32,397 nt of DNA from a virus (Duplodnaviria; Heunggongvirae; Uroviricota; Caudoviricetes): IMG/VR virus record IMGVR_UViG_3300044551_000118. The stretch is one strand, 5' to 3'. A program made the position numbers and the translations under genes. Positions 2,040 to 29,793 of the stretch are shown piece after piece. Each line of letters opens with the position of its first letter. The first letter of the stretch is position 1. The notes beneath the pieces were generated by a model. It searched no databases and was not told the origin of the DNA. It saw only the letters and a program-made list of their open reading frames with translations.

Positions 2040-2061
2040 TATGCGTCGGCCTAGGCGCATA
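2040..2061. promoter_or_regulatory. Back-to-back CGCATA motifs (TATGCG-N10-CGCATA) between divergent genes
   Basis: Same arrangement recurs at 23362-23382 (N9) between another divergent gene pair. Confidence 0.55.
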
Positions 2062-2103
2062 GCGCCATCGTAGATTGCCATTTGGACGCGGAGGAGTTGC
2101 ACG

Positions 2104-5100
2104 ATGTCGCTGATTGTCGCCATGGGCGGTTTGCAGAAAATGGGACCGAACCTGCCGGTGCTGCGCTGGGCCGATGTCGCGGGCGTCCTGTCCAACCGCG
2201 CGGACGGACTTATTGAGCAGATCACCAGTCTGTTCACGAACATACCGCTCAACATCGAAGGGACGTTCCTATCCTTGGGCAACGAGCTGTGGGGCGCAGC
2301 GGCGTGGATGGTCTCCATGTCGCAGAGCAAGTCCGAGGGGCTCAAGGGCGTGTTCGGACCCGCGATGAACACGTTCGCAGGGAAGATCTACACGGCCATC
2401 AACACATCGTTCATGGTCCCCTTCCTCATCATCATGCTCGCGGCGCTGGGCGGCATGTGGGCCGTGTTCCGGGGGCAGGGATCCCGCGTGCTGATGAAGA
2501 AGGTCGGCGCCATGGGCCTCGGACTCGGCCTGTTCCTGAGCATGGGCGCGGCATCGGCGGCGCATCCGACCACCGATGCGCCGATGACCCCGTACTGGAC
2601 CGTGAACCAGGTCTCCAACATCGTGACGCTGGCCGGCAGCCGGCTCTCGGATGCCTTCGACGCATCGCTGACCACTGGCACCACGAGCTTCCTGAGTTCG
2701 ACGGCTCCGGGCATCGATCAGCTCTCCTGCCGCCGCTATGTCGCCCAGCTCGAGCGGAACTCCAAGGACGGCGAGGACGGAGTAGGCAAGAGCGCGACGC
2801 TCATCGCGCTCAATCGCATGTGGGAGGAGACGGGCCTGCGCATCTGGGCCCGCGCCCAGTACGGCCCCGGCGACAACAGCATGCAGGTGTTCTGCCGCGC
2901 ACTCGAAGCGCGGGGAGGCGTCTCCGGCTTCGATCAGGGAAAGATTGCCCAGGCCGCTGCGGGAGGACATGCTCCCATTAATCGCAATGCCGCCGCATGG
3001 TGGCCCAACATGCTCGTGTCCGCCGAGAAGAATCCGACCTCGAATCAGATGCTCGACCGCGCCGTGACCATGTTCGACGTATGCGGGCTTAAGGACGGGA
3101 AATTCTACGCGCGCCCGGGCTTCGGATTCATCCAACTCCTCACAGGCGGGCACCGCGGCCTGTCGAAGACCGTTACCGACTCCACAGGCGTTGACCTTGG
3201 TGCCACCAGCGGCTTGCCTGACGTAGAGGAAGTATCGCTTCCTCTCTCTGATCAGTGCTCGGCCGCTATCAACGGGCGTGTCGCCGGACAGAGGTGGAAC
3301 TATGAGATTCTCCAGCCGCCCGGGAAGGTCGCCCACTCGAAGATCAGGGGCCAGAAGTGGAACTGGGATTCTTCAGGCAATGATGCGGGTGGCGACTCGC
3401 TGCGCGCCATCGTCAACAAGTTCGACATCAAGAGCGACTCCGCCGCTGGGTGGAATGGCGATCAGATCGACTGGCAGACCGCTGCGGCCAGCTCCGACTC
3501 GAATAATGGCAACTCGCTGCAGAACAATGCGGCTATCAACACCATCAACTCCCAGCACGGCGTCTCGGGACTGACCGACATCGGCGGGTCGATCGTCTTC
3601 GCGCTCTCCGGGCTGGTGAACTTCGTCATCTGGGGCCTTGGGCTGGGGCTTCTCCAGATGCTCGCGGTCGCCATGAGCTTCCTGCTGGCGGGCGTCGGAC
3701 TCTACTTCGGCTTCCTGATCTGGGCGGTCATGCCCGACAAGGGCTCCAAGGCGGTCGGGAACGCCGTCAAGCAGATGGTCGCCGCATGCGCGGGCATCAC
3801 CATCATCAGCATCATCGCATCGGTGCTCAACACCATCATCAACGCCTTCATGGCGGCCCTGGGCGTCATCGACGGCAACGGCAACACGACCGGCACGGTC
3901 ATGACCATGTCCGTCGCCTCGCTCGTGCTTCCCCCCGCCGCCATCATGCTCCTCAAGTACATGTGCACGAACGTGTGGAAGATAGGCAACCCGTTCTCCG
4001 CCGAGGGGCTTGGCGCGCTGGTCGGCGGCGGAGCGATCCTCAAGGGCGTGGGCAACGCGGCCAAGGGGCTGGCCGGGGGAGCCATCGGCGGAGCGGCTGC
4101 GCTCATGGGAGGCGGGGGCGTCATGGCCGCTCTCGGCGCGGCGAGGTCCGGGGCGGCATCCGCGGCCTCGGGCAAGGGCGTCATGGGCACCGCGGGAGGC
4201 CTGGCGGATGCCGCCGGGCGCGGGCACGGCGCCGGGCAGATGGACAGGTTCTACCGCGAGCGCAACGAGAGCATGGCCGAGAAGGCCGTGGGCGGCGGCG
4301 AAACGAAGGACCGCAATCCGACCGAGGGCGAGAGCGTGCCGGGTTCCGACGCGGAGCCGAAGAGCGCCGAAGAGACGGCCCGAGACGATGCCATCGGCGC
4401 ATCCGGGGCGGACAAGGCGAAGGACGGCGAGGAGCCGGTCACAAGCGAAGCCGAGGCGGCCGCCACGGGCGGCGACCCGACTCTGAGCATGGACGGCGAG
4501 GAGCCGGAGGACGAGCCCGAGCTGGACGAGAACGGCGAGCCTGTGGCGAACGAGGCCGAAGGCGCCGTCGAGGGCGAGCCCGAGCTGGACGAGAACGGCG
4601 AGCCTGTGGCGAACGAGGCCGAAGGCGCCGTCGAGGGCGAGCCCGACCTCTCGGAGGGCTCGGACGATACGAAGGCCGCGCTCTCCGGCATCGCAGGGTC
4701 GGTGAAGGGCGACCTGCGCGAGATGAAGGACGATCTGACGGACAAGGCCCACGCCGTCGCCGACAGGACCTCCGAGCGGGCGCATGCGCTGGCGGATGGC
4801 GCGGTCGTGCATATGCGCCGGCACGCCGTCGGGCGCGTGGCGCTGGCCGCGGCCCCGATAGCCGCGCGGGCGTCCAAGGCCGCGGGGCGCGGCGCTCTGC
4901 GCTCCGCGGCGTCCGTCGCCAAGGGGGCCACCAAGTTCGCCTCCAAGCATCCGGTGCTCGCCACCGCAGCCGTGGGGGCGGTCGCCCCCTGGGCGCTGCC
5001 CTTCGCCGCGGGCGGGGCCGCGCTGGCCCACTCCGCGCTCTCCAAGGGCCGGGTCGTAGGCCATAACAAGGACGGCTCCGACATCATCAAGGGCCGGGGC

Positions 5101-6630: not shown

Positions 6631-6640
6631 CGACAGCCGA

Positions 6641-6687
6641 GCAGCCCCCTCGGAGGTTTTCGTAACGAAAATCTCCGAGGGGGCTGC
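6641..6687. terminator. 22-bp stem inverted repeat after the VirB6-like gene
   Basis: GCAGCCCCCTCGGAGGTTTTCG-TAA-CGAAAATCTCCGAGGGGGCTGC, one wobble. Confidence 0.75.
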
Positions 6688-6813
6688 CGTCTCATATACG
6701 GGATGCCCAGATACAACGCCAGTAACGGAAGCGCACCGATGCACATGCGCAGAAGCATGACGAACGCGAAAACCAGGGAGTGATGCATCCGTCTCGGCGC
6801 ATAGCACCGGACC

Positions 6814-7617: not shown

Positions 7618-7762
7618 GCTCTCCGCTTCATCGACAAGCGCCTCCGCTCTCTCTTCACGGGAGGGCGGAGGCGCTTGTCGTTCCCGATGCATAGCCATCT
7701 CCCATAAGGAGGCGGCGTGCCGCGCGTCCATCCGGGGCGCTTCGTGCCATGCCGCGCATATC

Positions 7763-8718: not shown

Positions 8719-9625
8719 CCTGTTCGCGCTCGCCCCGCTGCTTGCGGGAGCGCTCCTCACAGCCGCTCCGGTCCACGCCGAGGCGGCTTCCGTCCGCTCG
8801 GGGGCAGACGGCGGCGCGAGCGCCGTGCAGGCCCATCGGAAAGCGCTGTCCGATGCCCAGACGCGACTGGCGAAGGCGGACGAGGCGCTGGCGGACGCCC
8901 GAGCCAGAGTCAAGGATGCGATGGGCGACCGGTCCGCATCCAAGCAGTCCCTTCAGGCTCTGGGCAGAGCGGCGCAGGCGGCGGACGGGGCGATGGATGC
9001 CAGTCCCGCGCCCACCGGCTTCCAGCTCTTCCGAGGGGCGGCGCAGCCCGCCTCGTTCCGCGGCGACATCGATGCGGCGGACGCCCGCGCCAAGGCCGAG
9101 AACGATGCCGCGAGTGCGCTGACGAAGGCCGCTCGGGCGGTCGCGGACTCCCATCCCGTGCAAGTAGTGCCGCAGGGCGCCCAAGCCCCGCAGAGTGCCG
9201 TTTCCGGCCCGATTCAGGGCACGTACGCGACGCGGGCGCAGAACGCCCCCCAGTCGCAGCCCCCCGCGCCCGCGCAGCCGCAAGTAGCCACGCTGGATGT
9301 CACCTCCGCCACCACCTGCTCCGACTCCGCATGCGCCCAGAGCGCGGTGGACGCCGGGGGAGCGGCGTACATCGACTACTCCGGCTCCGGCTCCGGCTCC
9401 GGCTTCTCTGAGATAGCCGGGCATTCGGGAGGCGCGGCGGGCCTCATCGCCTCGTTCGCGCCCGGACAGACTGTGCGCACGACGGGGGCGCTGCCGGGCC
9501 TATGGCGCATCACGGGGCTGAGCGACATCCCGCTGAACGCCCGCGCCATACCATCCGGAGGGTTCGCATTTCAAACCTGCGTGGGCAACGTGCTGCGGCT
9601 GGCCTACGCCACCCGCATCGGCTGA
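8699..9625 (+). CDS. Secreted coiled-coil protein with a C-terminal sortase-fold domain (308 aa)
   Basis: Sec signal with AxA site, Ala-rich coiled coil, Pro/Gln linker, then IAGH...FQTC...R matching the sortase His/Cys/Arg triad. Confidence 0.65.
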   Translation: MTTKKTSLFALAPLLAGALLTAAPVHAEAASVRSGADGGASAVQAHRKALSDAQTRLAKADEALADARARVKDAMGDRSASKQSLQALGRAAQAADGAMDASPAPTGFQLFRGAAQPASFRGDIDAADARAKAENDAASALTKAARAVADSHPVQVVPQGAQAPQSAVSGPIQGTYATRAQNAPQSQPPAPAQPQVATLDVTSATTCSDSACAQSAVDAGGAAYIDYSGSGSGSGFSEIAGHSGGAAGLIASFAPGQTVRTTGALPGLWRITGLSDIPLNARAIPSGGFAFQTCVGNVLRLAYATRIG

Positions 9626-9633
9626 ACGCCGCA

Positions 9634-9679
9634 TGCGAAAGGCCCGCCGCCGGAATCATCCGGCGGCGGGCCTTTCGCA
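9634..9679. terminator. Perfect 21-bp stem inverted repeat
   Basis: TGCGAAAGGCCCGCCGCCGGA-ATCA-TCCGGCGGCGGGCCTTTCGCA. Confidence 0.8.
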
Positions 9680-9742
9680 ACCTTCGCCGCATAGCCGTCG
9701 CGCATCATCAACCGACGATACGACAACGAAAGGCGGCCAGTC

Positions 9743-10135
9743 ATGGTTGCATTGCAGGCGCGCAGGCCATCAGGAAGCCCCGCATCCACGGGCGGCGAGT
9801 TCGACGGAAGCAGGAGCATGGGCGGGGCCGATCTGCCGCGCATCAACCAACGGGGGGAGAGGCGCGGACGCCCTCGCCACACGCCCAGCGAGAGCGAGCT
9901 CAACGCCGCCCAAGAGGTGAAGACCCAAGTGGACGCGCTGGCCGCGAGCGGCGATGCGCAGGGCGCGGCCGCGCTGGCGAAGCGCAACGGGGCGTTCGTG
10001 CCCGGCGAGCCGCTGCCGTTCGGGCAGGGGGCGGTCGCCGTGTTCGACGGGAAGCGGCTTGAGACCGCTGATATCAACGGCTACGAGGTCACGGAGCGCG
10101 ATTTCGACCCTACGACCCTGCGGGTCAAGGGATAG
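9743..10135 (+). CDS. Hypothetical protein (up to 130 aa; start uncertain)
   Basis: Best-fitting ORF between the terminator and the SSB leader; GAAAGG precedes the ATG. Confidence 0.55.
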   Translation: MVALQARRPSGSPASTGGEFDGSRSMGGADLPRINQRGERRGRPRHTPSESELNAAQEVKTQVDALAASGDAQGAAALAKRNGAFVPGEPLPFGQGAVAVFDGKRLETADINGYEVTERDFDPTTLRVKG

Positions 10136-10342
10136 GAGACAGGACGCATTGAGAGGGTGCTTCGATGCCCCGGCTCGCCACGTACACCCAAAGGACAATC
10201 GGCATCAGAGCATCCTCCTTTCCGGTCGACGCCAATCTGCCGACGCATAGGGCGACATGTCAAGCGAAAAACCTTTCGCGGGGCATGCCGCCCTTCTTGT
10301 TGATAGACGGCATCAAGAAGCAAGAACCGAAAGCAGGACATC

Positions 10343-11122
10343 ATGCCGCAGGAAACCAACAGCAAGCGCACCTTCATCACAGAGAACCTCACCATTCCGA
10401 ACGCGCGGACCCAGTGGGCCATCCGCCTGTTCACGCCGGACACGGAGGGGCAGTACGCAGACGGAAAGTACTCCGTCATCCTCCTCATCGACAAGTCGGA
10501 TACGGAGACCGTCGCCGCCATCCGCAAGGCCATCGCGGAGGACATCAAGAAGGCGATCGAGGCCAAGCTGCTCGACGGCCCGGCCACTGTACAGTACGTC
10601 CAGCGCGTGAACGCCGGCGACTATGACGAGGATTTCGCCTATCCGCTGCACGACGGCGACCTGGCTACCAAGACTGACAAGGAGACCGGAGAGCGGGTCC
10701 TCCGCAAGGATGCAGGCGAGCCCGAGCTGGCCGGCCACTGGTACATCACCGCCAAGTCCGCAAAGAGGCCCCGCATCTACTCCGCGCTGGCCGTGCAGTA
10801 CGACCTGAACGACCCCGCGCAGCTCGACAAGGCGAAGTCGGACATCTACTCCGGCTGCCGCGTGAACGCCCGCGTGACCTTCAACGCCTTCGGCCCGTCC
10901 CGCGCCGTGCGCGGCGGCGGCGTGGGCGTCTGGCTCAACGCGGTGCAGAAGTTCGCGGACGATGAGCGGCTGGGCGGAGGCCCGGTCGACGACGGATTCT
11001 CGCCGGTCGCCGGCGCGGTCGCCAACACCGACGGGTTCGCTCCCGCCGGAGCGCAGGCTCCCGCAGCCGACAGCGAGCCGAGCGCGGACGCCGATGCGAT
11101 CTACGCCGCCCTCGGGGTCTGA
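10343..11122 (+). CDS. DUF2815 / Enc34-type (T7 gp2.5-like) single-stranded DNA-binding protein (259 aa)
   Basis: Characteristic motifs KYSVILLIDKSD, PLHDGD, GHWYITAKS, IYSGCRVNA and GVGVWLNAVQKFADDERLGG, plus a flexible acidic tail. Confidence 0.9.
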   Translation: MPQETNSKRTFITENLTIPNARTQWAIRLFTPDTEGQYADGKYSVILLIDKSDTETVAAIRKAIAEDIKKAIEAKLLDGPATVQYVQRVNAGDYDEDFAYPLHDGDLATKTDKETGERVLRKDAGEPELAGHWYITAKSAKRPRIYSALAVQYDLNDPAQLDKAKSDIYSGCRVNARVTFNAFGPSRAVRGGGVGVWLNAVQKFADDERLGGGPVDDGFSPVAGAVANTDGFAPAGAQAPAADSEPSADADAIYAALGV

Positions 11123-11138
11123 CAGCCGACAGCCAAGC

Positions 11139-11188
11139 GAGAACCCCCCGCCGCAGGTCCTGTGAAAGGATCGGCGGCGGGGGTTCTC
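11139..11188. terminator. Inverted repeat after the SSB gene
   Basis: GAGAACCCCCCGCCG...CGGCGGCGGGGGTTCTC, imperfect long stem. Confidence 0.7.
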
Positions 11189-11230
11189 CGTATCTAGGAC
11201 GCATGCCGCTCGTAAACGAAAGGAAGCGTC

Positions 11231-11368
11231 ATGGACAGCATCGCCGATATAGCCGAGGAGCAGTGCTTCGGGCCTGTGGAGACGAAAGCGCTGGCGCTGG
11301 CGGACGCCGCGTCGGTCATGCTGGGCGAGGAGCCGCTATGGCTGATCGACCTTAAGGCCAAGGCATGA
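11231..11368 (+). CDS. Small acidic hypothetical protein (45 aa)
   Basis: SD GAAAGGAAG; MDSIADIAEEQCFGPVETKALALADAASVMLGEEPLWLIDLKAKA; ATGA overlap with the next ORF. Below the ORF-track cutoff. Confidence 0.6.
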   Translation: MDSIADIAEEQCFGPVETKALALADAASVMLGEEPLWLIDLKAKA

Positions 11369-11649
11369 GGGGCGTCCGTCTCGTCGCGGCTCTCGCCGCC
11401 GTCTCATGCCTCTCCAGCTGCGGGGGGCGGGTCGCCGCGCAGCCATTCATCAAGCTCGCCCCGTCATGCGTCAGGACGACAGCTGCGGCAAACGTTTACT
11501 CGTCCGACGAGGGGCTGGCACAGCTGCCAGATGTCTGCAATCCTATACTGCCGCTGGGCGATGCCGACGACAACGAGTGGGGGGCGAGAAGACGACCTGA
11601 AGCCATGCGCCTGGCAGGATGCAGTCGCTCCTTCGGGAGCGTGGATTGA
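11365..11649 (+). CDS. Small putative lipoprotein (94 aa) whose stop codon lies inside the solitary CRISPR repeat
   Basis: MRGVRLVAALAAVSCLSSCGG lipobox-like start, translationally coupled; the TGA is within GGATTGAAAC. Confidence 0.55.
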   Translation: MRGVRLVAALAAVSCLSSCGGRVAAQPFIKLAPSCVRTTAAANVYSSDEGLAQLPDVCNPILPLGDADDNEWGARRRPEAMRLAGCSRSFGSVD

Positions 11650-11652
11650 AAC
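11624..11652 (+). CRISPR. Solitary type I-C-like CRISPR repeat unit (not an array)
   Basis: GTCGCTCCTTCGGGAGCGTGGATTGAAAC has the I-C signature: 5' GTCGC, a hairpin (CGCTCC-TTCG-GGAGCG) and 3' GTGGATTGAAAC. No second repeat at spacer distance and no cas operon. Confidence 0.8.
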
Positions 11653-11680
11653 CCGCAAGAGCTGATCTGACGTTCAGCCC

Positions 11681-11729
11681 ATACGGCAAGGCCCTGCGAA
11701 CGCTTGACGTTCGCGGGGCCTTGCCGTAT
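11681..11729 (+). terminator. 22-bp hairpin 28 nt downstream of the solitary repeat (terminator or RNA 3' end)
   Basis: ATACGGCAAGGCCCTGCGAACG-CTTGA-CGTTCGCGGGGCCTTGCCGTAT, one U-G wobble. Confidence 0.7.
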
Positions 11730-11820
11730 AGCATTGCACGGGACGCATTGCCATCGCGAACAGCGCCATAGGGCGAACCGCGTCCGGAAGCGGACGCAAG
11801 AACGAAAGGAAAGGGCCTTC

Positions 11821-12243
11821 ATGACCGAAATCTGGAACACCATCGAGGACACGCCGAGCGAAATAGGAGCCAAGGAGTTCCGCCTGCGCGCCTCTCATGT
11901 CATCAAGGCGCTCGCGCAGGTCGACCAGAGCTGGGCAGACAATGCCGCACAGCGGCTCAAGGGCTCCGAGATCGACGATGGGCGGGACTGGGTGCACCCG
12001 CTCGACCGCACCATGCTCCACGTCTACGAGCTATGGCTGCTTGAGCACGACGGCGTGAGGCAAAGCCGCCACCCCGGCGCATGGATCTCGGCGGACGGGC
12101 TGATGAATCTGGGCGGCGACACGCAGGAGTCGCTGGAGGAGGCGCAGGCCATCGCCGATCAGGAGCATCGTCTGGTGCGCCTGTGGATGCGTCATCCGGG
12201 TGCCGTGCCCGGGGCCTTCGGGCTCTTCGCGCCGAGCGAGTGA
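11821..12243 (+). CDS. Hypothetical acidic protein (140 aa)
   Basis: SD GAAAGGAAAGG before ATG 11821, typical codon bias, flanked by hairpins. Confidence 0.8.
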   Translation: MTEIWNTIEDTPSEIGAKEFRLRASHVIKALAQVDQSWADNAAQRLKGSEIDDGRDWVHPLDRTMLHVYELWLLEHDGVRQSRHPGAWISADGLMNLGGDTQESLEEAQAIADQEHRLVRLWMRHPGAVPGAFGLFAPSE

Positions 12244-12264
12244 CGCACAGGTCAAGACCGAGAG

Positions 12265-12305
12265 AGGCGCCGCTGGCTGCAAACCGCAGTCGCGGCGCCT
12301 TCTTT
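12265..12305 (+). terminator. Intrinsic terminator
   Basis: AGGCGCCGC...GCGGCGCCT stem followed by TCTTT. Confidence 0.6.
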
Positions 12306-12307
12306 GC

Positions 12308-12328
12308 GCCCTAGAACGCACGGAAACG
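12308..12328. repeat. 21-bp exact dispersed intergenic repeat, copy 1
   Basis: GCCCTAGAACGCACGGAAACG, identical at 20213-20233. Confidence 0.85.
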
Positions 12329-12350
12329 CCTCTCTGAGAGGCGAACAGCC

Positions 12351-12524
12351 TCAGTGGCGCTCCCAGCGACCGCAGGGCCCGATCTCGGTTCTGAACCGGT
12401 ACGGCGCATCCCCGAACGGAGGCTCGTCTCCGCCCAGCGGCATGAAGCCGTCGTTGAGCATCAGCGCCTCCTCGTCGTCCGCCGCGCCTACATCCCGCTT
12501 AACGCTCTCCGAAACATGCGTCAT
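12351..12524 (-). CDS. Small acidic hypothetical protein (57 aa)
   Basis: MTHVSESVKRDVGAADDEEALMLNDGFMPLGGDEPPFGDAPYRFRTEIGPCGRWERH; ATGA overlap with the upstream gene and a GAGGG RBS. Below the ORF-track cutoff. Confidence 0.6.
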   Translation of the reverse strand: MTHVSESVKRDVGAADDEEALMLNDGFMPLGGDEPPFGDAPYRFRTEIGPCGRWERH

Positions 12525-13138
12525 CCAACCCTCTTTTCCAGTTCATCCAGCGCCGCCATGAGCGCCTGCCACCATGATTCGCGGGTCTGCGCCGGCGCCA
12601 TGCGGGCGAATGCGAGGGCCCAGCACAGAACGCGGATGGCGTCCGAGAGCCCCGCTTCGCCAAGGCCCGTCATGTCAAGCGCGGCGAGGGCCGCGATGGC
12701 ATCCCTGGCACGCTTCCGTTCGCTCGCAACCCTGTTCCATTCCTCGTCCGACCAGTGGGATTCGTAGTCGAGCAGGGTTGCGAGCGAACGCCGGGCGAGC
12801 GCATCGGAGCCAGGAGTCCCGCCGCTCTTCGGTTCAGTCCATCCGCTCGCGAGGCCGGACAGCGCGCGAAGCGCTGCGAGCGCCTCGGGTTCGGGGAGCA
12901 GCGCCGCGTACCCGTGCATCGCCCAGCATGCAATCCTGTCGTCCGCCTCGAAGAGGAGCTGCTCCGGGAGGCGGGAGAGCGCTTCGCGCAGATCGTCCCA
13001 CCCCTCGCCCGAGACGCCGAGCCAGGAAGCGCGGGCGGCGCACTCCGCCGCAAGCGCGGCCATATCGCCGCAATCAGCGCGCAGCGCATCCAGCCGCTCG
13101 GGATGGGCGATGCCCTCAGGAAGCGCTGCCATCCGCAA
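12521..13138 (-). CDS. Hypothetical alpha-helical protein (about 205 aa)
   Basis: Co-oriented ORF overlapping both neighbours in an operon-like chain. Confidence 0.65.
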   Translation of the reverse strand: MRMAALPEGIAHPERLDALRADCGDMAALAAECAARASWLGVSGEGWDDLREALSRLPEQLLFEADDRIACWAMHGYAALLPEPEALAALRALSGLASGWTEPKSGGTPGSDALARRSLATLLDYESHWSDEEWNRVASERKRARDAIAALAALDMTGLGEAGLSDAIRVLCWALAFARMAPAQTRESWWQALMAALDELEKRVG

Positions 13139-13553
13139 GCAGATGCCGTGCGCATGCCTGCGCGAGGCATGCTATAGCATGGAAGTCGCCCGACCCGCGC
13201 AGGGATGCGATCAGATACGAAGGCGTGGCATCGGGCTTGACGGAAAGCATCACCGCGAACCGCGCATACACCGCCGCCTGAACGATGGAGACGATCTCGT
13301 CACATCGGCACAGACCACCCGGCAGCGACTGGAGGATATGCTCCGCCTGCCCAAAGGCGAGCATGTCATGGCCTTCGTCCAGATCGGCTCCGAGCAGAGC
13401 GTTCGGAAGCTCTTTCAAACCATCCAGAAGCGGGCCGTGATTGCGATAGCCATCCTCTGGGATCAGTCCCTTGGGGCTGAACGCCTCGTACGCCTCGTCC
13501 CATTCCGCGCCTCCCGGCTCGGCATCCTCATGGACGTAATCAAGCAATTCCAT
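13116..13553 (-). CDS. Hypothetical acidic protein (145 aa)
   Basis: SD GAAAGGA before the ATG; directly downstream of the replicase. Confidence 0.7.
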   Translation of the reverse strand: MELLDYVHEDAEPGGAEWDEAYEAFSPKGLIPEDGYRNHGPLLDGLKELPNALLGADLDEGHDMLAFGQAEHILQSLPGGLCRCDEIVSIVQAAVYARFAVMLSVKPDATPSYLIASLRGSGDFHAIACLAQACARHLLADGSAS

Positions 13554-13594
13554 CAGAGTCCTTTCGTCATATGATGCTCAGCCGACCACATGCG

Positions 13595-16186
13595 TCAGAC
13601 GTGATGCAGCGGGCAGTTCGTCGTGATGCCGGACATCTCGCACGCCGAGGTCACGCACGTGCAGAAGTCGCTGGGACTGGTCCTCCAGTGGCGCTCGGGC
13701 ACGGCGTCGTAGAGCCGCCGGTACTCGCGATCAATCCACTCCTGGGACTTGTGGAACTTGGCAGCGATTCCCCCGATGCTCAGGGCGTGATCGCGCATCG
13801 GCTTGTGGGTGTCGCCCTTGGTCATGGGGGGGATGTCCAGCGGAGCATCCCGTCCGCCCTGCGCCATGGCCGCATCGGGGATGACGTAGGGAGCATCCTG
13901 CCCCACTGGCGTGAATCCGTCGATGTTGCCCTTGCGGCTGTCGAGCTTCGGATCGTAGGCGTTATGCACGGCGGCCATCGGCTCCGCGGGCGCCGGGGCG
14001 CCCTTCGAGCCGGGCTTGAGCATGCCGACCGAGCCAAGCCACCCGACCATCGCATCGCTCATCGTCGCCACCTGGGAGTCGTCGGCCACGCGGTAGTCGC
14101 CGGACTCCTCCCCGTTGTCCATGTGCGATCCGGGGGCCAGGACATAGCCCTCGCGCTCGCACCGGGTATCGATGTGGAAGCCTCCGATATGGGTGTTGGT
14201 GACCACATGCACGCCCTCGGGGAGGCGGTAGTAGGCGTGGACGCCGCCGCTCGGGGTGCGCGTCAGGAACGTCTTGGGGAAGTCGAGCGTCCCGTATTCG
14301 CCGATCGTCCTCTCGAAGGAGTCCCAGCCGTTCTCGTCGGCGTACTTGGAGCCGGATCCCTTGGCGTCCATGTCGAAGTCGAGCACCGCGAAGCCGTCAT
14401 GAGGCACGCACGCCCATGCCGCGGCGTTCTGCGGCGGCTTGGGGAGGTGCGGGTTCCTCGCCTTGTTCTCGTTCTGCCAGCCGTAGCATGACTTGTCGAG
14501 GTTCGCCCGCACGTAATGGCATCCGAAGCCACGCTCGTCAGGGTTCGTAGCCACGCCGTCCAGCGGTTCGGGCGGGGGAGTGGGCGCGTCGTTCTCGATC
14601 TGGGCCATCACGTACTTGCGGAAGTCGGAGAATCGGTCCTCGTCCTCGACGACGTAGACGCTGACGCGATTGCCATCCACGGTTTTCTGCTTCGACTTGA
14701 GCCCGAGCTTGCTGATGGCGTTGGTCTTGTCGCTCTGGCTGGGCCGGTATGGGTTGTCCGGGTTGTAGACCCAGCCGCGGGCTATGATCTCGGAGACCAT
14801 CCACTGCTCGGCATCCGTGAGCATGTCGGGACGGTTGATCTGCACCTTCCTGATTTCCGCCTCGCCGGGCGTCCCCTCCTCGAACCACGCCTGGCACGAG
14901 CGCATGATGAAGCCGTCCGCGCCGAATTGGGAGATGAACGCGCGCATGAGGTCGAAGTCCTTCGCCTTGCGCCCGTCCTTCATGCGCACGAAGACGAAGC
15001 GACGCTTCATGGAATCGTCCATCGAGGTGACGAACGAGAGATTGGTGGCGATGGACAGCGTGGCCTCGGGGCGGAAGGTGACCATGTCGTGGCCCAGGCG
15101 CCGGGCGTTGAGCCCGTCGCCGGTCGAGAGCTTCTTCAGCCGCTCGGTCTGCTGCGCGGACAGGCTCCCCGCATCCTCGTCGAAGGCCCACATCCGCCCG
15201 ATGAGCTTGGCCGGCTCCTGCTCCAGCACCGTGGAGGACACCTTCGCCCCGCCGGTCAGGTTCACCGCATCTACGGTCGTCGCCAGCGAGCGGGTGCTCC
15301 GCCCTTTGACGAAGGCGTTGAAGAACGTCCCCTTGCCGTTGCCTCCCTCGCCCGCCAGCACGAAGGTCTTCTCCTTGAACTGCTGCAGGAACGGCGCGGC
15401 GGGAAGATACTCCAGATTGTGCAAGCTCTTGGCGTCGTCGGTGATGTCCTGCATGAAGTGCCGCGCATGGAGCACCAGCCTCTCCTCGAAGTCGCGATCG
15501 ATGCTCAGCTCGAAGGGATCGCTGAACACGGCGTCCCCGGGCCTGAAGATGCAGGGCTTCTCCCTGAGCCCCGGCTCCGCGTACCAGCAGTACGCCTTGT
15601 TCGCGAAGCGGATGCCATGCCTGATGCGCAGCGGGCGCCCGTCGAAGGTCACGAGCTTGGCGCATTCGATCTTGAGCAGCCGATCCCACTCCGTCTTCGA
15701 CTCGGCGGAGCGCACATCGTAGCAATCCGCGAGCGAGGCGATGGCGGTCCATGACTCCAGGCGCCTCATGCCCATATAGTCCACGTCGCGCACGAACAGC
15801 ACCCCCGTCTCCGCGTCGTCGCCCTTGAGCACGATGTCGCCGTGCTTGAAATCCCACAGGGCCTGCGCGTACCCGAAGGGCACCAGCATCTCGGCCTCGC
15901 CCTTGGATGTCTGCCTGCGGGGCACGACGACCTCATTGCCCACGCGATCGGTGAAATCGCCCTGCCTGCCCTGCTCGGCGAGACGCAGCCCGTCATACGT
16001 CGCCTGCACGTTGCGCGGCATGCGCGGCATCGCCGCGAACTGCCATGTGTCCAGATTGTTGGGATCCATCGCCCGACTCCTTTTCAGCTTGTCTGCAATG
16101 CCTATATGCGTCGGCGCAGAAGCAGGGAGGGAATCGACGGATGCAGGAGTGCGCTCGAACGGGAGGAGTGTGTCGAATTCGGGCAT
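13595..16186 (-). CDS. Replicase: SF3 (D5/P4-like) helicase fused N-terminally to a bifunctional primase-polymerase domain (863 aa)
   Basis: Walker A GEGGNGKGT, Walker B AFDED, motif C IATN, then Prim-Pol motifs AVLDFD, TRTPSGGVHAYY and IDTR...GYVLAPGS. Confidence 0.9.
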   Translation of the reverse strand: MPEFDTLLPFERTPASVDSLPASAPTHIGIADKLKRSRAMDPNNLDTWQFAAMPRMPRNVQATYDGLRLAEQGRQGDFTDRVGNEVVVPRRQTSKGEAEMLVPFGYAQALWDFKHGDIVLKGDDAETGVLFVRDVDYMGMRRLESWTAIASLADCYDVRSAESKTEWDRLLKIECAKLVTFDGRPLRIRHGIRFANKAYCWYAEPGLREKPCIFRPGDAVFSDPFELSIDRDFEERLVLHARHFMQDITDDAKSLHNLEYLPAAPFLQQFKEKTFVLAGEGGNGKGTFFNAFVKGRSTRSLATTVDAVNLTGGAKVSSTVLEQEPAKLIGRMWAFDEDAGSLSAQQTERLKKLSTGDGLNARRLGHDMVTFRPEATLSIATNLSFVTSMDDSMKRRFVFVRMKDGRKAKDFDLMRAFISQFGADGFIMRSCQAWFEEGTPGEAEIRKVQINRPDMLTDAEQWMVSEIIARGWVYNPDNPYRPSQSDKTNAISKLGLKSKQKTVDGNRVSVYVVEDEDRFSDFRKYVMAQIENDAPTPPPEPLDGVATNPDERGFGCHYVRANLDKSCYGWQNENKARNPHLPKPPQNAAAWACVPHDGFAVLDFDMDAKGSGSKYADENGWDSFERTIGEYGTLDFPKTFLTRTPSGGVHAYYRLPEGVHVVTNTHIGGFHIDTRCEREGYVLAPGSHMDNGEESGDYRVADDSQVATMSDAMVGWLGSVGMLKPGSKGAPAPAEPMAAVHNAYDPKLDSRKGNIDGFTPVGQDAPYVIPDAAMAQGGRDAPLDIPPMTKGDTHKPMRDHALSIGGIAAKFHKSQEWIDREYRRLYDAVPERHWRTSPSDFCTCVTSACEMSGITTNCPLHHV

Positions 16187-16256
16187 ATGCGCCGTATGCG
16201 CCGGCTAGCACCCGTATGCGTTTTTCGGCGTTTTTTCAACGAAAACAAGCAAAAAC

Positions 16257-16434
16257 GCATACAGAACATACGGGTGCATACGGCCCATATGCACCCCTCA
16301 TCCCTACTGCCAGTAGGGCTTTAGCCCCCCTGCATATGAGCATATGGTTTATAGAGGCTTTGGCATGTTTAAGGGCTGTTTCGGGGGTTCTATAGGAAAA
16401 GCCGTATGCATATGCAGTCTCGTGCTTTTCGGAG
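16257..16434. repeat. 178-bp AT-enriched direct repeat, copy 1 (candidate replication origin)
   Basis: Matches 17500-17677 with 3 mismatches. Many GCATA(C/T) motifs in both orientations and the palindrome CCCTACTG-C-CAGTAGGG; directly upstream of the replicase. Confidence 0.9.
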
Positions 16435-16480
16435 GCAATCGTCGCAGGAGAGAAGATCGCGCGTGGCATAGCCCGAGGCC

Positions 16481-17302: not shown

Positions 17303-17499
17303 GAGAGAGATGCCGCCGGGGCGACCCTGATCGCATTCTGGGCGGTCAGCGCTCATGCATGGCATACGGCCCGTGAAAGCGCATCGAACAGGGGGGGGTC
17401 TGGTACTTTATTGCTCTGAATATGGGCACATGGGCCGTATGCAGTGACTAGTATCCATATGCGTTTTTCGCGGATTTCTGGCGGAAAACAGCCGAAACT

Positions 17500-17677
17500 G
17501 CATACAGAACATACGGGTGCATACGGCCCATATGCACCCCTCATCCCTACTGCCAGTAGGGCTTTAGCCCCCCTGCATATGAGCATATGGTTTATAGAGG
17601 CTTTGGCATGTTTAAGGGCTATTTCGGGGGTTCTATAGGAAAAGCCGTATGCATATGCAGTTTCGCGCTTTTCGGAG
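17500..17677. repeat. 178-bp direct repeat, copy 2
   Basis: Near-identical to 16257-16434; period 1243 bp. Confidence 0.9.
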
Positions 17678-17719
17678 CTGTCCCCATGCTTCGCGGCCAA
17701 GCGACGCATAGCCGCCATC

Positions 17720-20200
17720 GTGCCCTTCAATCCGTTCAAGAACGCCCCGGCTCCCGCGCCCAAGGCGTCTCCCTCCGCGCTCGCGGCGCCGGAGGAGCCT
17801 CCTGCCGCGCCCTCGGCGTCTGCAGAGACTGATTCCTGGGAGTCGGCATGGGGCGCGGCGACAGGCGGGGAACCTGCCCCGCAGCCCGAGCCTCCTGTCT
17901 CCTCGAACCCGAAGGAAGATCCGGAGCAGCCTGCGCCCCCTCTTGTCGAGGAAGCGCCGACTGGGGCATCTGCGCCCGTTCCCGAAGAGCAGGCAGAGAT
18001 GTCGGTCGCCCCAGTTCGTCCGAAGGATGACGATGCCTCATGGTTCGCAGAAGACGAACCGGAGGACGAGCCTCCTGCCGTATCGCTGTTCGAGGAAGCC
18101 GAACCGGAGGACGAGCCTCCTGCTGTATCGCTGTTCGAGGAAGCCGAACCGGAACAGGCCCCCGCCGCGAAGCCCGCTGCCTCCTCGTGGCTCGATCATC
18201 TCGACGGCACCGACGACGCCGGCGATCTTGATTGGGGCGATGATGCCGCATCTGGCATGGGGCAGCCAGAAGCGAAGCCTACTCCTATCGCGGACGAAGA
18301 CCCCTGGGGCGCGGAGCGGAACGGCGAAGAGCCAACCGCCACAGACGAGCCGGAGGCGTCTGCGGCGGATGACGGCTTCTGGGGCAATGCTCCCGAAGCT
18401 CCTGCCTCGTCGCAGGAAGACGCAGATCCCGTCTCTGCGCATGATGACGACTTCTGGGGCGCTCCCGAAAGCGGCGAAGGCGAGAATGCCCCCCAGGACG
18501 AGTCTTCATCGCAGAAGGCTGCAGAGCCCGACTCGGCGGCGGAGGACGGCTTCTGGGGCGCGACGCCTGCTCCCGTTGAAAAGACGCCGCGGCGGAACGC
18601 CGCGCCCGATGATGATGATTTCTGGGGGGCCGCATCGGATGCAGGCGAAGACGCCCCTGCCCCGGCTGTGGGGCGGACGGAGCGGAAAGCCAGGCCCGGC
18701 GCGAATGAAGAGCCGGAACCGGCTGACGACTTCTGGGGCGCCTCCGCGCCGGACGGGGAAAACGGGCCGGAGGAGACGCCCCCTGCGCCCGCCCCTGCGC
18801 TCGATGACGGCAGCCAAGGCATATCGGAGGCAAGCGAGGAGAGGCGCGTGGAGCCTGCCTCGTCCGACGATGGCTTCTGGGGGCCTTCGGCCCCCTCCTC
18901 GAAGACGGATAATGCAAAGCCCTCTTCGGATGCATCCGACGACGACTTCTGGGGAGATGCGAACGAAGACGCTCCGTCCGCATCGGAGCCCCCCGCGAAC
19001 GCCGCGGAGACGGACGGCGAGAGCACGCAGATCATGCCGGGGCCGCAGCCCCCGAAATCCCACCCCTCGGATGAGGGCAATGACGGCTTCTGGGGCGACG
19101 CCGCGCAAGAGCGCGCCCGGGCCGTCGAAGAGAACGGGCGCGAGGCCGCATCCGATGGAACGCCTGCCGTCGTATCCTCCTCGCGCCCCGGCTTCTTCGA
19201 CGGCCCGTCCCTGCCCGTGCATCTCGACCTCTCCGAGAGCGACGACGAGGAGGGCGACGCCTCCAAATCCTCTGCGGGCGCGGGCGACCTGTGGGACGAT
19301 GCGCCCGCAAGGCCCGCAGCCGCCGCGAGCGCCCCGTTCGGCGTCGAGGATGAAGACGACGTCAGCGAGCACGAGGCGAAGCGCTCCTCTCCGCTCGCGG
19401 ACATCCCGTTCCGCCTCATCGCCATCGTCCTGGCCGCGGTGCTGGCGCTGGGCGCGGGCGGGTTCGGCGTGGCGACGTGGATGAGGCACCGCGCCGCCGA
19501 GAGAACAAAGGCGGAGAACGCGGCGCTGTGCTCCCAGCTCTCCGACGCCCGTGCATCGTGGAAGTCCAAGACGGCGCAGGTCAAGGGGCTGCACGCCCAG
19601 CCTCCCGCCGCGCCATCGTTCGCGTGCTCGTCCACCGGCAACGCCATGCGCGAGAGCCTCGGGCGCATCGCCGCCGCGGACAAGAGGCTCGACTCCGCCA
19701 TCGCGAAGGCCGTGCAAGGCGCGTGGAAGCCGACCGCAGACGGGCTCGCGGGACTCAAGACGAAGCGCCCGGAAGCCTCCGCGGACACGATCGACGCGGC
19801 CCTGACGCTCTCGAAGCAGAGCCCGAGGACCGCCGCCGACCTGCAGTCCATGCAGCGTCAGGCCAAAGCGCTGGACGACAAGGCGGCATCCGAGCAGAAG
19901 GCCGCGGACGCGAAGAAGGCGGCGGCGAAAGCCAAGGCCGACGCGGAGGCGAAGAGGAAGGCGGAAGAAGCAGCCAAGAAAGCCGCGGACGAAGCGGCGA
20001 AGAAGGCCGCGGAGGACGCCGCCAACGCGCCGCAGCCGCAGTACACCCCCGCGTATACGCCGACATATGTGCCCAGATATGCTCCTAGATACGTGCCGCC
20101 GGCCCCAGCGCCCAAGCCCGCCGCCCCGGCTCCGCCCGCCCCGGCTCCGCCCGCCCCGGCTCCAGCGTCTCCCAAAGGCAACTCCGATGCCAGCATGTGA
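17720..20200 (+). CDS. Single-pass membrane protein: long acidic disordered N-terminus with repeated D-D/G-FWG motifs, TM, TolA-like coiled coil and Pro-rich tail (826 aa)
   Basis: Eight FWG motifs; TM IAIVLAAVLALGAGGFGVATW; K/A/E-rich helix; YTPAYTPTYVPRYAPRY and PAPAP repeats. GTG start 9 nt after CGCATA. Confidence 0.8.
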   Translation: MPFNPFKNAPAPAPKASPSALAAPEEPPAAPSASAETDSWESAWGAATGGEPAPQPEPPVSSNPKEDPEQPAPPLVEEAPTGASAPVPEEQAEMSVAPVRPKDDDASWFAEDEPEDEPPAVSLFEEAEPEDEPPAVSLFEEAEPEQAPAAKPAASSWLDHLDGTDDAGDLDWGDDAASGMGQPEAKPTPIADEDPWGAERNGEEPTATDEPEASAADDGFWGNAPEAPASSQEDADPVSAHDDDFWGAPESGEGENAPQDESSSQKAAEPDSAAEDGFWGATPAPVEKTPRRNAAPDDDDFWGAASDAGEDAPAPAVGRTERKARPGANEEPEPADDFWGASAPDGENGPEETPPAPAPALDDGSQGISEASEERRVEPASSDDGFWGPSAPSSKTDNAKPSSDASDDDFWGDANEDAPSASEPPANAAETDGESTQIMPGPQPPKSHPSDEGNDGFWGDAAQERARAVEENGREAASDGTPAVVSSSRPGFFDGPSLPVHLDLSESDDEEGDASKSSAGAGDLWDDAPARPAAAASAPFGVEDEDDVSEHEAKRSSPLADIPFRLIAIVLAAVLALGAGGFGVATWMRHRAAERTKAENAALCSQLSDARASWKSKTAQVKGLHAQPPAAPSFACSSTGNAMRESLGRIAAADKRLDSAIAKAVQGAWKPTADGLAGLKTKRPEASADTIDAALTLSKQSPRTAADLQSMQRQAKALDDKAASEQKAADAKKAAAKAKADAEAKRKAEEAAKKAADEAAKKAAEDAANAPQPQYTPAYTPTYVPRYAPRYVPPAPAPKPAAPAPPAPAPPAPAPASPKGNSDASM
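18056..18152 (+). repeat. In-frame 45-bp tandem repeat (EPEDEPPAVSLFEEA x2)
   Basis: Read directly from the sequence; one mismatch. Confidence 0.85.
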
Positions 20201-20233: not shown

Positions 20234-20344
20234 GCACTCTAGGTGATTTTAACGCCGAACGGCATTCCATCGTCCGCGTCGGCATGCAGAATGCGGCAGA
20301 GGCCCGTTTCGCGCGACCGGCATGCCGGACGCATATGTGCCTGT

Positions 20345-21701: not shown

Positions 21702-21709
21702 CGTGACAA

Positions 21710-21755: not shown

Positions 21756-21974
21756 ATTGACGGGCAGCTGCGCCGGGGCAGCGTTGGATGAACGCACGTG
21801 AACTGGGCGCAATCGTCTGTCATGCCGTTATATGCGTCCGCAGACAAAAGGAGGAGGCCATGCGGTCCGTCTTCCCGCGCGAACGCGATGGAAGGACCAC
21901 ATGGCCTCTTGAGGGCGCCGCATCGCGTCTTGGGCTTGCGGACAAGACCTTGGAGCTTCGCGGCTGGAACGATG

Positions 21975-23316: not shown

Positions 23317-23361
23317 ATGCACTCCTTCAAGTGTGCTGCATGTCGTTGTGTCGGGCAATCG

Positions 23362-23382
23362 TATGCGTCCGCGAAGCGCATA
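23362..23382. promoter_or_regulatory. Back-to-back CGCATA motifs (TATGCG-N9-CGCATA) between the divergent clamp and coupling-protein genes
   Basis: The plus-strand copy ends 10 nt before the SD-less ATG 23393; same layout as 2040-2061. Confidence 0.6.
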
Positions 23383-23392
23383 GCCGCTTCCC

Positions 23393-25747: not shown

Positions 25748-25766
25748 CGGACGCATACGCGCGCGC

Positions 25767-26636
25767 ATGCAACATCTGAGCCATGACATGCGCGACGAGC
25801 TGGACGCGCGGGTGAGAGCCATCGACTGGACTGACGCCGCGTGCGAGTACGACAGCCCCGAGCGCCATCTCGTCGCATCCTGGGCGGCGCAGAGCGATCT
25901 GGTGCCCTCCGCCCTGGGCCGGCTCTTCCCCGACGATCAGCAGCGCGAGCGGATGATCGAGTACACGATGGTGCGCGTCGTGGAGAAGATCCTGGGCGTG
26001 GCGATCGAGTCGAAGAGCGCCCAGTGGAACTGGGGCAACCTCTGGGACCCGCGCGAGGACACGTCCTTCTGCGGCTGGTGCCGGCGCCTGGCCTACTCGG
26101 TGGCGCGCACGAACGCAGGCCGCGTGCTTCACCCGAAGACGGTGAACGGCTCGGGCATGGAGAACGACGACGGGTACAACCCCGCATGGGACTCCAAGGA
26201 TTCCAAGCCGCTCATGACGGTGGCCCCGGACGAGCTGTTCGCCGAGCATCCCGATCTGGCGGTGCCGCGACCGGTGGGCGGCTCGCGCGAGCGCATGGAT
26301 GCGCTGCTGCGACTGAACGGCCCGGCGCGCACCCTGAGGTGGCTGCGCCGCTGCGGGTACTGGGACGCGTCGATGGACGGACTCGACCCGGACGTGGCAT
26401 TGGCGCTGCTCTCCGCCCCCGTGCCGCGAGCCCGCGCCAAGCAGCTGCCGCTGCTCTTCGCAGGACGCGAGCGCATGGCGGAGCTATACGCGCGCACGCA
26501 GACCGCGAAGCCGGACCAGCGCCACCTGGTCGAGCTGCGCCGCGAGGTCACCGCTGCGGCGCGGGAGAACGGCGAGCGGGAATGGCATGTGTGGACGCGC
26601 CTGGGCACCGCGGCCGCGCAGTTGGCGTCAGTATGA
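25767..26636 (+). CDS. Divergent sigma-70 region-2-like protein, candidate element-encoded sigma factor (289 aa)
   Basis: ERMIEYTMVRVVEKI...WDPREDTSFCGWCRRLAYSVARTNAGR resembles the ECF region-2 pattern DLxQExFL...FDPxxGxSFxTWLxxIAxN. No obvious region-4 HTH. CGCATA 9 nt before the ATG. Confidence 0.45.
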   Translation: MQHLSHDMRDELDARVRAIDWTDAACEYDSPERHLVASWAAQSDLVPSALGRLFPDDQQRERMIEYTMVRVVEKILGVAIESKSAQWNWGNLWDPREDTSFCGWCRRLAYSVARTNAGRVLHPKTVNGSGMENDDGYNPAWDSKDSKPLMTVAPDELFAEHPDLAVPRPVGGSRERMDALLRLNGPARTLRWLRRCGYWDASMDGLDPDVALALLSAPVPRARAKQLPLLFAGRERMAELYARTQTAKPDQRHLVELRREVTAAARENGEREWHVWTRLGTAAAQLASV

Positions 26637-27802: not shown

Positions 27803-27865
27803 GCGCTTGGCCTATGCGCCTGTAAAACCCCGTTATGCGCTCGTGCGTGGTTTGGACCCCTTGAT

Positions 27866-28640
27866 GGGATTATTGATTTATTGTTTATGTTTGATTTCAT
27901 GTCTGTTTGTTGCTGATTTGCTGTTCGTGCTGATTGTCTGTTTATGCTGTTTGATTTGTTCATGCTGTCTCTGTCTGTGCTGTCTATGTCTGTGCTGTCT
28001 ATTTTTGATTCGTTCGTTTTATGCCGTCTGTTGCTGTATTGCGTCTATGTGTTTCGTTTGTTGATTGCTTACGTGTGTTATGTGCGTTTCTGTTTGTTGA
28101 TTGCTTACGTGTGTAGTGGGAGATTTTTTCTTTTTGGCTTGTGCTTGCTTTGGCTAGGTATGTATCTGTTTGTTGATTGCTTGCTTTGGCTTTCCATGTT
28201 GAAGTGTGTTTTTGCTTGTGTGTGTTCTGTATTGGCTGTCTGTCTTTGCTCGGCTTTGGCTAGGTATGTATCTGTTTGTTTTTGCTTGCTTTGGTTTAGG
28301 TTATGTATGTTGCGTTTTCGATTGCTTGCGTTTGGTTAGGTTGATTATGTTGCGTTTGTCTTTGCTTGCCTTGGTTTAGGTTATGTATGTTGTGTTTGTC
28401 ATTGCTTGCTTTGGGTATGCTGCTTGCGTTGTTCCTTAAGTGTGCTGATGTTCTTCTTTAGGTATGTGCTTGAGATTGATCTTGAGGTTGTCTTCTGGAG
28501 TTCTCTGTGTTCTTCTTTATGAGGTTTTCTTTGAGCGTCTTTCTTTGCGTTCGTTTCTTTTTAGGTTTGCCAAGGGTGCTTTCGTTTTAGGGTTGCCAGG
28601 GGTGTTTTCTTTTCCTCTTCGCTTTCCGTTTGCGTTCGTG
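27866..28640. repeat. Non-coding, low-GC, extremely T/G-skewed tract with nested direct repeats (candidate centromere, iterons or oriT region)
   Basis: 23-bp exact pair at 28056-28078 and 28092-28114; 28-bp exact pair at 28147-28174 and 28253-28280; 32-bp pair at 28281-28312 and 28361-28392 with a degenerate copy between them; TGCTTGC core recurs about 7 times. Confidence 0.85.
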
Positions 28641-28819
28641 TTCGGCTTCCCGGCTAGCGCCGCATGCCATGCGCCCTTGCCGGGCGCGCGGGGCTTTTCG
28701 CTTCGCTTCTTCTTTCCGTTTTCGTCTGATTCTTCGCGCACGGCGTCCGCGTGACGCATAGTGCATCTCATGGACGCGCGGAGATGCCGTGCGCCGTCAA
28801 AGCGAAAGGAAGAGGCATC

Positions 28820-29416: not shown

Positions 29417-29419
29417 CCC

Positions 29420-29722
29420 TTGCTTCCCATGATGATGACCCGCGCCCAGGTCGCCGCGCTGCTGCACGTGCCCGAGCGCTTCGTCAGACTGCTCGTCGAG
29501 CGCCATGTGCTTGAGGCTCCGGGCGAGGACGGCTTCTCCGTGGCGTCGGTGCAGCGCTCGCGCGCGCAGCGCCCGTGGCTCAACGATCTCGCCACGCCGA
29601 TGAGCGACGGCGAGCTCTCGCGCATCGACTCGCGGCTGCATGTGCCCGACGGCATGGGCGCGGACATGGCGGGCCGGCGCTACGCGCCGCTCTGGCAGGT
29701 GCTCGACCGGCTCTGGCCGTGA
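29420..29722 (+). CDS. Excisionase/Xis-like (HTH_17, MerR-type) DNA-binding protein (about 100 aa)
   Basis: MMTRAQVAALLHVPERFVRLLVERHVL is a typical Xis-like HTH start. Confidence 0.6.
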   Translation: MLPMMMTRAQVAALLHVPERFVRLLVERHVLEAPGEDGFSVASVQRSRAQRPWLNDLATPMSDGELSRIDSRLHVPDGMGADMAGRRYAPLWQVLDRLWP

Positions 29723-29793
29723 GGCGCATCGGACGCATACGCGATGGCGCTCCGGCAGATCGCCGGAGCAAGTAGTGTGTCGCAATAAATCAG

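Follow-up and report, generated by a model that had tools for sequence, protein, structure and literature searches.

A CGCATA box in a Bifidobacteriaceae mobile element as a putative private single-box promoter, and its sigma-like candidate reader p289

The stretch of DNA analysed here, in the following called the window, is the complete 32,397-nucleotide (nt) IMG/VR virus record IMGVR_UViG_3300044551_000118, in which a short sequence, the CGCATA box, precedes many genes, among them the gene of a 289-amino-acid (aa) protein, p289 (25767-26636, plus strand), which is the candidate reader of the box. The window has a G+C content (GC) of 65-72% and few recognizable genes. These encode an HNH nuclease, an Enc34-type single-stranded DNA-binding protein, a PrimPol/DUF5906 primase-helicase, a DUF2637 protein, a DnaN-like sliding clamp, a ParA-like ATPase, and a PD-(D/E)XK nuclease. 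Most of the other window proteins have no family match in Pfam, PHROGs or NCBIfam, nine orphan proteins retrieve nothing from PHROGs and NCBIfam, and a megablast search with positions 13595-20200 against plasmid and phage collections gave no DNA match. The 784-aa protein encoded at 23393 has Walker motifs and shares about 27% identity with plasmid proteins annotated as type IV coupling proteins, and all its homologs belong to the Bifidobacteriaceae. With a profile of this protein, syntenic loci were found in Bombiscardovia coagulans (45% GC), Bifidobacterium canis, B. cuniculi, B. castoris (71% GC), and B. animalis. The genes for the clamp, the 784-aa ATPase, p289, ParA, and the nuclease are common to these loci, with protein identities of 26-57%, and the loci of the five orthologue groups with a conserved box span 45-72% GC. 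The element looks conjugative or plasmid-like and not like a T4-type phage. A search of sequencing runs for this DNA yielded no RNA run, only one from wastewater that contained 8% of its words.

CGCATA is present in 26 copies on both strands of the window, compared with 12.0 ± 3.5 copies expected from dinucleotide shuffles, and none of 100 shuffles reached 26. All 17 positions at which a first-pass annotation of this DNA had listed the motif are exact matches, and nine further copies lie at 3080 (-), 4812 (-), 13263 (+), 16105 (-), 16186 (-), 16215 (-), 16256 (+), 17458 (-), and 21976 (-). Moreover, an unbiased k-mer scan returned ACGCATA with 13 copies vs. 2.8 expected and GACGCATA with 10 copies vs. 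1.2 expected. The mostly intergenic location that had been described for the motif is borne out, as 23 of the 26 copies fall into the 19% of the window that lies outside the gene calls, a gene map that may miss small genes; in coding sequence the box is depleted (3 copies vs. ~9 expected). Fourteen boxes are oriented at an annotated start within 100 nt.

The distance between box and start codon goes along with the presence of a Shine-Dalgarno (SD) sequence. Six open reading frames (ORFs) that are supported by the GC of third codon positions (GC3) and have no SD sequence start 9-10 nt after a box, whereas from ~23 gene starts and the frequency of the box in non-coding DNA only ~0.09 such coincidences are expected. 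For these six ORFs the first start codon was used, except for 20345, which is an in-frame start. With N9 and the like denoting the number of nt between box and start codon, and with the loci of relatives numbered L001 onward, the box at 6798-6803 (+) stands at N10 before ATG 6814 (267 aa; N9 for the orthologue in L001), and that at 17705-17710 (+) at N9 before GTG 17720, the start of the 826-aa protein p826 (N9 in L001, N10 in L002 and L003). The boxes at 20330-20335 (+), 23377-23382 (+), and 25752-25757 (+) are found at N9 before ATG 20345 (151 aa), at N10 before ATG 23393 of the Walker-type, coupling-protein-like ATPase, and at N9 before ATG 25767 of the sigma-like gene of p289, respectively. 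Finally, the box at 27813-27818 (-) lies at N10 before ATG 27802 of the ParA-like ATPase, in tandem with a second box at 27834-27839 (-), which is 31 nt away from the same ATG. A variant box, GGCATA at 16465-16470 (+), precedes ATG 16481 (273 aa, no SD sequence) at N10. Of eight starts without an SD sequence that had been placed 8-10 nt past a box, these seven stand, and the eighth, 16186, was probably mis-called. It is most likely that the primase-helicase actually starts at ATG 16069, because this codon has a strong SD sequence and its own box at 16105-16110 (-), 35 nt upstream, and because alignments with the orthologues begin only at residue 42-43 of the 16186 reading.

A box 31-93 nt upstream, always pointing at the gene, is also present in eight genes that have a clear SD sequence of the GGAGG or GAAAGG type. 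A range of 42-93 nt had been given for five such genes, and their spacers are indeed 44, 42, 93, 45, and 59 nt: the box at 2040-2045 (-) precedes ATG 1995 of a small secreted-looking protein, that at 2056-2061 (+), arranged back-to-back with it at a distance of 10 bp, precedes ATG 2104 of a 1508-aa orphan protein, and those at 10244-10249 (+), 23362-23367 (-), and 28755-28760 (+) precede ATG 10343 of the Enc34-type protein, ATG 23316 of the sliding clamp, and ATG 28820, respectively. The box of the clamp gene recurs in L001 and L004 and, as CGCATC, in L002 and L003, at a distance of 39-45 nt from the orthologous ATG, and L002 and L003 also have a box ~42 nt before the orthologue of ATG 28820. 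Furthermore, the box at 9688-9693 (+), located just past a terminator-like hairpin, lies 49 nt before the SD-led ATG 9743 and is kept in L003 ~47 nt before the orthologous ATG.

When 24 strict sites of six loci (spacing N8-11, of which 20 sites have N9-10) were combined in a count matrix, the consensus G-R-CGCATA-G was obtained, with a bias beyond the core only at G(-2), at the purine(-1), and at the G directly after the box. The absence of the -7 T noted in the first-pass annotation was confirmed, since T occupies the sixth position from TA in only three of the 24 sites, so that the housekeeping TANNNT hexamer is not formed. The same holds for the -35 element: between -45 and -3 relative to the box no position is conserved in the 24 sites, which points to a single-box promoter. 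A simple sigma-70 promoter scan also found no promoter between 16000 and 30000. Dyad symmetry with a fixed half-site spacing was not found, as most boxes are single and asymmetric and the inverted pairs are spaced 9, 10, 15, 22 or 23 bp across the loci. Because this spacing varies, back-to-back boxes probably represent two independent divergent units and not one palindrome.

These data bear on the main rival explanation, according to which the box is an operator half-site of a repressor or activator of the element that overlaps weak promoters of the host's main sigma factor, so that its position would reflect the overlap. Words of the GCATA type are packed in both orientations in two arrays at 16180-16460 and 17350-17690, which are near-identical blocks flanking the gene at 16481-17302, and several boxes form inverted pairs (2040/2056, 23362/23377). 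The arrays, which have the GCATA core in common with the promoter box, are filled with GCATAC, GCATAT, and the palindrome TGCATATGCA, and TGCATATG occurs in 10 copies vs. 1.1 expected; a cluster of four CGCATA copies on both strands (16186-16261) lies within these GCATA(C/T)- and TGCATATGCA-rich sequences, and the 17458 (-) copy lies inside the second array. These arrays may be iterons or a multi-site operator and are probably not single promoters. A further precedent for the operator is a 34-bp motif of the related megaplasmid pMP7017 that, like the box, is specific to a large conjugative replicon of Bifidobacterium, stands upstream of many transcription units and is absent from the chromosomes; it overlaps -10 boxes and was read by its authors as a transcription factor site (PMC10832533). 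However, the pMP7017 motif differs in sequence and has a canonical TATACT -10 inside, and the transcription factor site is read as one on host-type promoters (PMC10832533). Between the coupling-protein-like ATPases of the element and of pMP7017-type plasmids the identity is only ~23-26%. Most sites of the element are single and asymmetric and all of them point at a gene, the spacing of the inverted pairs is variable, and with neither TANNNT nor a -35 element beside the box no host-type promoter is left to be overlapped. That the box is such an operator half-site is considered unlikely.

The box is conserved among the syntenic loci, which is remarkable because non-coding DNA should be randomized at protein identities of 26-57%. 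A box-like hexamer is found at N10 before the ATG of the 784-aa ATPase in six of six loci, with CGCATA, three times GGCATA, and CGTATA in the five orthologues. For ParA the box is located at N9-11 in all six loci, i.e., in the window and for all five orthologues, and for p826 it is found at N9-10 in four of five. Upstream of the p289 gene it lies at N8-11 in the syntenic loci, and the 267-aa protein also belongs to the orthologue groups with the box at N8-11. The p289 gene has the box in nearly every locus, including L001, L005, L011, L013, and L018 and, as CGCATC, L002-L004, and for the SD-led clamp gene it is located ~40 nt upstream. Together with the shuffles, this conservation, which extends to a host of 45% GC, is the reason why chance or base composition as the source of the box is rejected. 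The box is real and conserved. In relatives, G or C stands in place of its final A at conserved sites (CGCATG, CGCATC), which favors CGCAT over TA as the recognized core and weakens the assignment of TA to -12/-11. Loci with more distant p289 homologs have the box with small changes: L007 has CGCATG and CGCATA at N8-10, L011 and L018 have GGACGCATA at N6-9, and L012 and L013 have TGCATA, GGCATA, and CGCATA at N9-10. L006, with the most divergent p289 homolog, contains a different box, TTCCGCNCCATG, or TTCCGC[ACG]CCATG with the fuller form (A/T)TTCCGC[ACG]CCATG, in eight copies at 9061-17277 of the Logan ERR11534995 contig. All of them are on the gene strand and mostly 27-40 nt before SD-led starts, and CGCATA-type sites are at background level there. 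This would look like a second promoter dialect and fits a co-evolution of sigma factor and promoter, as seen in one lineage only.

Beyond the element, the motif is not a general feature of the hosts. In the 1.7-Mb genome of Bombiscardovia coagulans 45 matches to CGCATA-N9-10-ATG were counted vs. 20 for the reversed control, and 15 of them fall into a stretch of 78 kb around the element, which is ~10 times the density elsewhere. The 121 genomes sampled from the family have no general excess of GACGCATA-N9-10-ATG, and the highest count is that of Bombiscardovia coagulans. Two of the 121 genomes encode p289, and in both of them boxes cluster beside its gene. These numbers are relevant for the assumption that the host holoenzyme, with either the main or the single extracytoplasmic function (ECF) sigma factor, reads the box directly as an extended -10-like element of an unusual kind, and that no factor of the element takes part. 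The 3'-terminal TA of the box could be -12/-11, the two hosts examined have only two Pfam-detectable sigma genes each, and many actinobacterial genes are leaderless with a -10 element at a fixed distance, with 15% of the starts in Bifidobacterium pseudolongum being leaderless (PMC4782308). However, the motif is not enriched in the chromosomes outside the element and does not precede the host sigma genes, there is no -7 T, and the final A is exchanged at conserved sites. It is therefore quite improbable that the host holoenzyme reads the box on its own.

Even less probable, to a degree that it can nearly be dismissed, is a function of the box at the RNA level, where it would serve processing or translation from the 5' region of the transcript. 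The fixed distance to the start codon would suit such a signal, but with only 9-23 bp between divergent boxes the promoter for each of them would have to lie within the neighboring gene, the same box occurs 31-93 nt upstream of SD-led genes, and it is not complementary to the anti-Shine-Dalgarno sequence. A promoter of a T7-like single-subunit polymerase, which was considered for the likeness of the box to ...CACTATA, was rejected, as the 9-10 nt past the box are unconserved and no polymerase was matched in the window with Pfam or PHROGs.

The family of the candidate reader p289 is small, with 35 clusters at 50% identity in a set of 1.8 billion proteins. The AlphaFold2 model of p289, calculated from an alignment of 34 sequences, reached a mean predicted local distance difference test (pLDDT) score of 90.9. 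It consists of two helical domains (residues 1-125 and residues 165-289), and the linker between them is disordered but conserved. When the model was compared with 48,161 PDB chains in an exhaustive structural comparison (VIA), sigma region 2 made up most of the best 34 rows, all of them over residues 1-125, with Z-scores of 5.0-7.8 and root-mean-square deviations (rmsd) of 2.4-4.6. Examples are RpoS (5h6x_B; Z 7.8, rmsd 3.4, 93 aligned residues) and T4 gp55 (7d7d_F; Z 7.6, rmsd 3.2, 94 aligned residues), and sigB, SigE, pro-sigmaK, SigR, sigma70, and many ECF sigmas are found as well. An Atlas structure search with p289 likewise had Sigma70_r2 clusters among its returns. As the Z-scores are modest, this evidence was weighed by the uniformity of the match list and by the coverage of the full domain, and judged from the model the N-terminal domain is most likely folded like sigma region 2. 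That p289 is indeed the protein which reads the box is about an even bet. The linker contains a conserved motif, LF-x3-P-x-L-x-VPRPVG, at residues ~155-170 (26229-26276), in which P169 is invariant and R168 nearly so across the 34 sequences, and F158, P162, L164, and V166 are invariant in six close orthologues. This motif could be a docking peptide, e.g., for RNA polymerase or for the clamp, the gene of which is located two genes away from p289 in conserved synteny. A predicted complex of the p289 N-terminal domain with residues 1-480 of RPOC_BIFLO scored 0.01, which counts neither for nor against binding.

Very probably, the box is a promoter element. We further propose, with a probability of roughly 0.6, that it defines a private class of single-box promoters which are read by p289 and give leaderless or short-leader mRNAs. 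In this proposal G-R-CGCATA-G would be the single core recognition element, private to a family of Bifidobacteriaceae mobile elements and without a -35 partner, and p289 would replace the host sigma factor on the host core RNA polymerase, similar to T4 gp55. Since the genes without an SD sequence have the box at N9-10 and the SD-led genes have it further upstream, we infer a fixed short distance from the box to the transcription start, of ~6-11 nt. An ATG or GTG 9-10 nt past the box would then yield a leaderless mRNA or one with a leader of a few nt at most, for which no SD sequence is needed, and a box 31-93 nt upstream would yield a normal leader with an SD sequence. With the A of the ATG as the transcription start, the box would extend from -16/-15 to -11/-10 with TA at -12/-11. 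In the alternative register the start would be 6-7 nt past the box, as in most -10 elements, so that the box would occupy -12 to -7 and leaders of 2-4 nt would result, which should still behave as leaderless. The box upstream of p289's own gene would make the system self-reinforcing and p289 a candidate for autoregulation. All computational checks speak for the private promoter class for replication, transfer, and partition genes that the first-pass annotation had put forward, apart from a part of its leaderless set and its reading of TA as -12/-11. The claim is held short of full support because the starts are inferred, the last A varies, 16186 was probably mis-called, and some copies belong to the arrays, which may have another role.

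Several observations weigh against the private promoter class read by p289. Transcription from the ATG would place the box at -16 to -11, which is further upstream than a usual -10 element, and the stretch that has to be melted is GC-rich in the window (e.g., cgcgcgcgc before 25767). Moreover, the GCATA core fills arrays that look like sites of a DNA-binding protein and not like promoters. Regarding p289, the Z-scores of its fold matches are below 8, a range that is common for helical domains, and the support is at the level of the fold only. A Foldseek search of p289 against the PDB gave no match at E <= 0.001, with E-values of 0.3 or worse, no sigma signature of Pfam (PF04542 Sigma70_r2, r4, r4_2) or NCBIfam was detected at E <= 0.01, and a p289-family profile produced nothing beyond chance-level matches against PDB sequences. 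The profile-profile comparison (hhalign) of p289 with the host ECF sigma yielded a probability of 0.14%. The C-terminal domain is not recognizable as sigma region 4: modelled alone it reached a pLDDT of 97.2, but its best matches are mixed with a Z-score of 5.3 at most, and domain 4 of sigmaA (4g6d_A) has a Z-score of 4.5.

The closest working analogue of the proposed system is the late transcription of phage T4, in which single-box promoters without a -35 element are served by the sigma factor gp55 together with gp33 and the sliding clamp gp45 (PMC2988020, PMC7892883; PDB 7d7d). Like gp55, p289 would be a very divergent sigma factor of a mobile genome in which little beyond the region-2 fold, here a predicted one, has been kept, the box is single and would lie near -10, and the element also carries a clamp gene close to p289. 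In contrast to T4, the box is GC-rich and stands at N9-10 from the ATG, a C-terminal domain of 125 residues is present in p289 but not in gp55, and the element is not a T4-type phage. The T4 late consensus reads TATAAATA, a string not found in PMC2988020, and the box of the element differs from it. It is rather doubtful that p289 founds an undescribed sigma family which recognizes a single GC-rich box without a -35 element and works with the clamp, so that the transfer, partition, and replication genes, mostly leaderless, would be switched on only on replicating or transferring DNA; a dependence of p289 on the clamp, by analogy to T4, is speculation. Leaderless promoters of Actinobacteria such as Mycobacterium, Streptomyces, and Corynebacterium have a TANNNT -10 hexamer at a fixed distance of 6-7 nt before the start codon. 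They resemble the box genes in the fixed short distance of the start codon and the absence of an SD sequence, whereas the box has no -7 T, a conserved CGCA upstream of TA, and a variable final A, and is confined to the element. The ECF (group 4) sigmas are also small two-domain proteins with a linker, have a target promoter on their own gene and recognize a short GC-rich motif. However, they rely on a strong -35 element, often GGAAC-like, that is read by region 4 and has no counterpart at the box, and the Pfam models Sigma70_r2, r4, and r4_2 miss p289.

Mobile elements with their own sigma factor and promoter code are a known theme: they can keep their genes silent in the host and turn them on as one unit. 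The box and its candidate reader are probably a new form of it. Here the code would be a single 9-10-bp box which also sets the 5' end of the mRNA at or beside the start codon. If this is true, a sigma lineage without a -35 element exists outside T4-like phages, the regulation of these large Bifidobacteriaceae elements is explained, and an orthogonal pair of promoter and sigma factor is at hand for bifidobacteria, for which genetic tools are scarce. Literature searches for the box, the p289 family, CGCATA promoters, and sigma factors of integrative and conjugative elements of Bifidobacterium found none of them described, in a partial library that is no proof of novelty.

The box at 7755-7760 (+) is uncertain, as it lies within the 5' end of the longest HNH ORF, which starts at 7717. 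Since the orthologues align only from residue 61-88 of this ORF, a shorter HNH gene is possible, for which this box may be the promoter. An orphan box at 21831-21836 (-) points into the 3' end of the DUF2637 gene; an ATG at N7 (21821-21836) opens an antisense ORF that is probably spurious, and an antisense transcript is possible. The second orphan box, at 29734-29739 (+), follows the stop codon at 29722 and is itself followed by a strong hairpin with a T run; the distance from the box to ATG 30028 is 288 nt. The hairpin (29794-29833; 18 bp, GC-rich) begins ~55 nt past the box and has T runs on both strands. Possible explanations for 29734-29845 are a bidirectional terminator after the gene at 29429-29722, a box-driven RNA of ~90 nt, or a read-through promoter.

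Matches are also found in genomes in which p289 was not detected. L022 (G112:C1:1234735-1234831) is a divergent pair of GACGCATA-N9-ATG boxes in a Bifidobacteriaceae genome. This genome has no p289 homolog at E <= 1e-5, and no homolog of a window protein lies within 20 kb of the pair; for L022-L024, three regions with paired or clustered matches of this kind, no homolog of any window protein was found. L022 is possibly a stray module on the same promoter.

Two further regions of the window are distinctive. Between the divergent ParA gene and the gene at 28820, ~900 bp of DNA (27850-28740) are non-coding, T/G-rich, and A-poor, with 50% GC, an AT skew of -0.58, and degenerate repeats such as ctgtttgttgattgcttac and ttgcttgctttggcttaggtatgta. 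No Rfam match was obtained for this region, which may be centromere-like (parS) or an origin. On the minus strand, a segment of lower GC (55%) at 107-1995 contains three tandem paralogous small genes with starts at ~661, 1357, and 1995, each of which has a signal-peptide-like N-terminus (MKGKLGA...AAMMLLS), a strong SD sequence, and a near-identical hairpin upstream.

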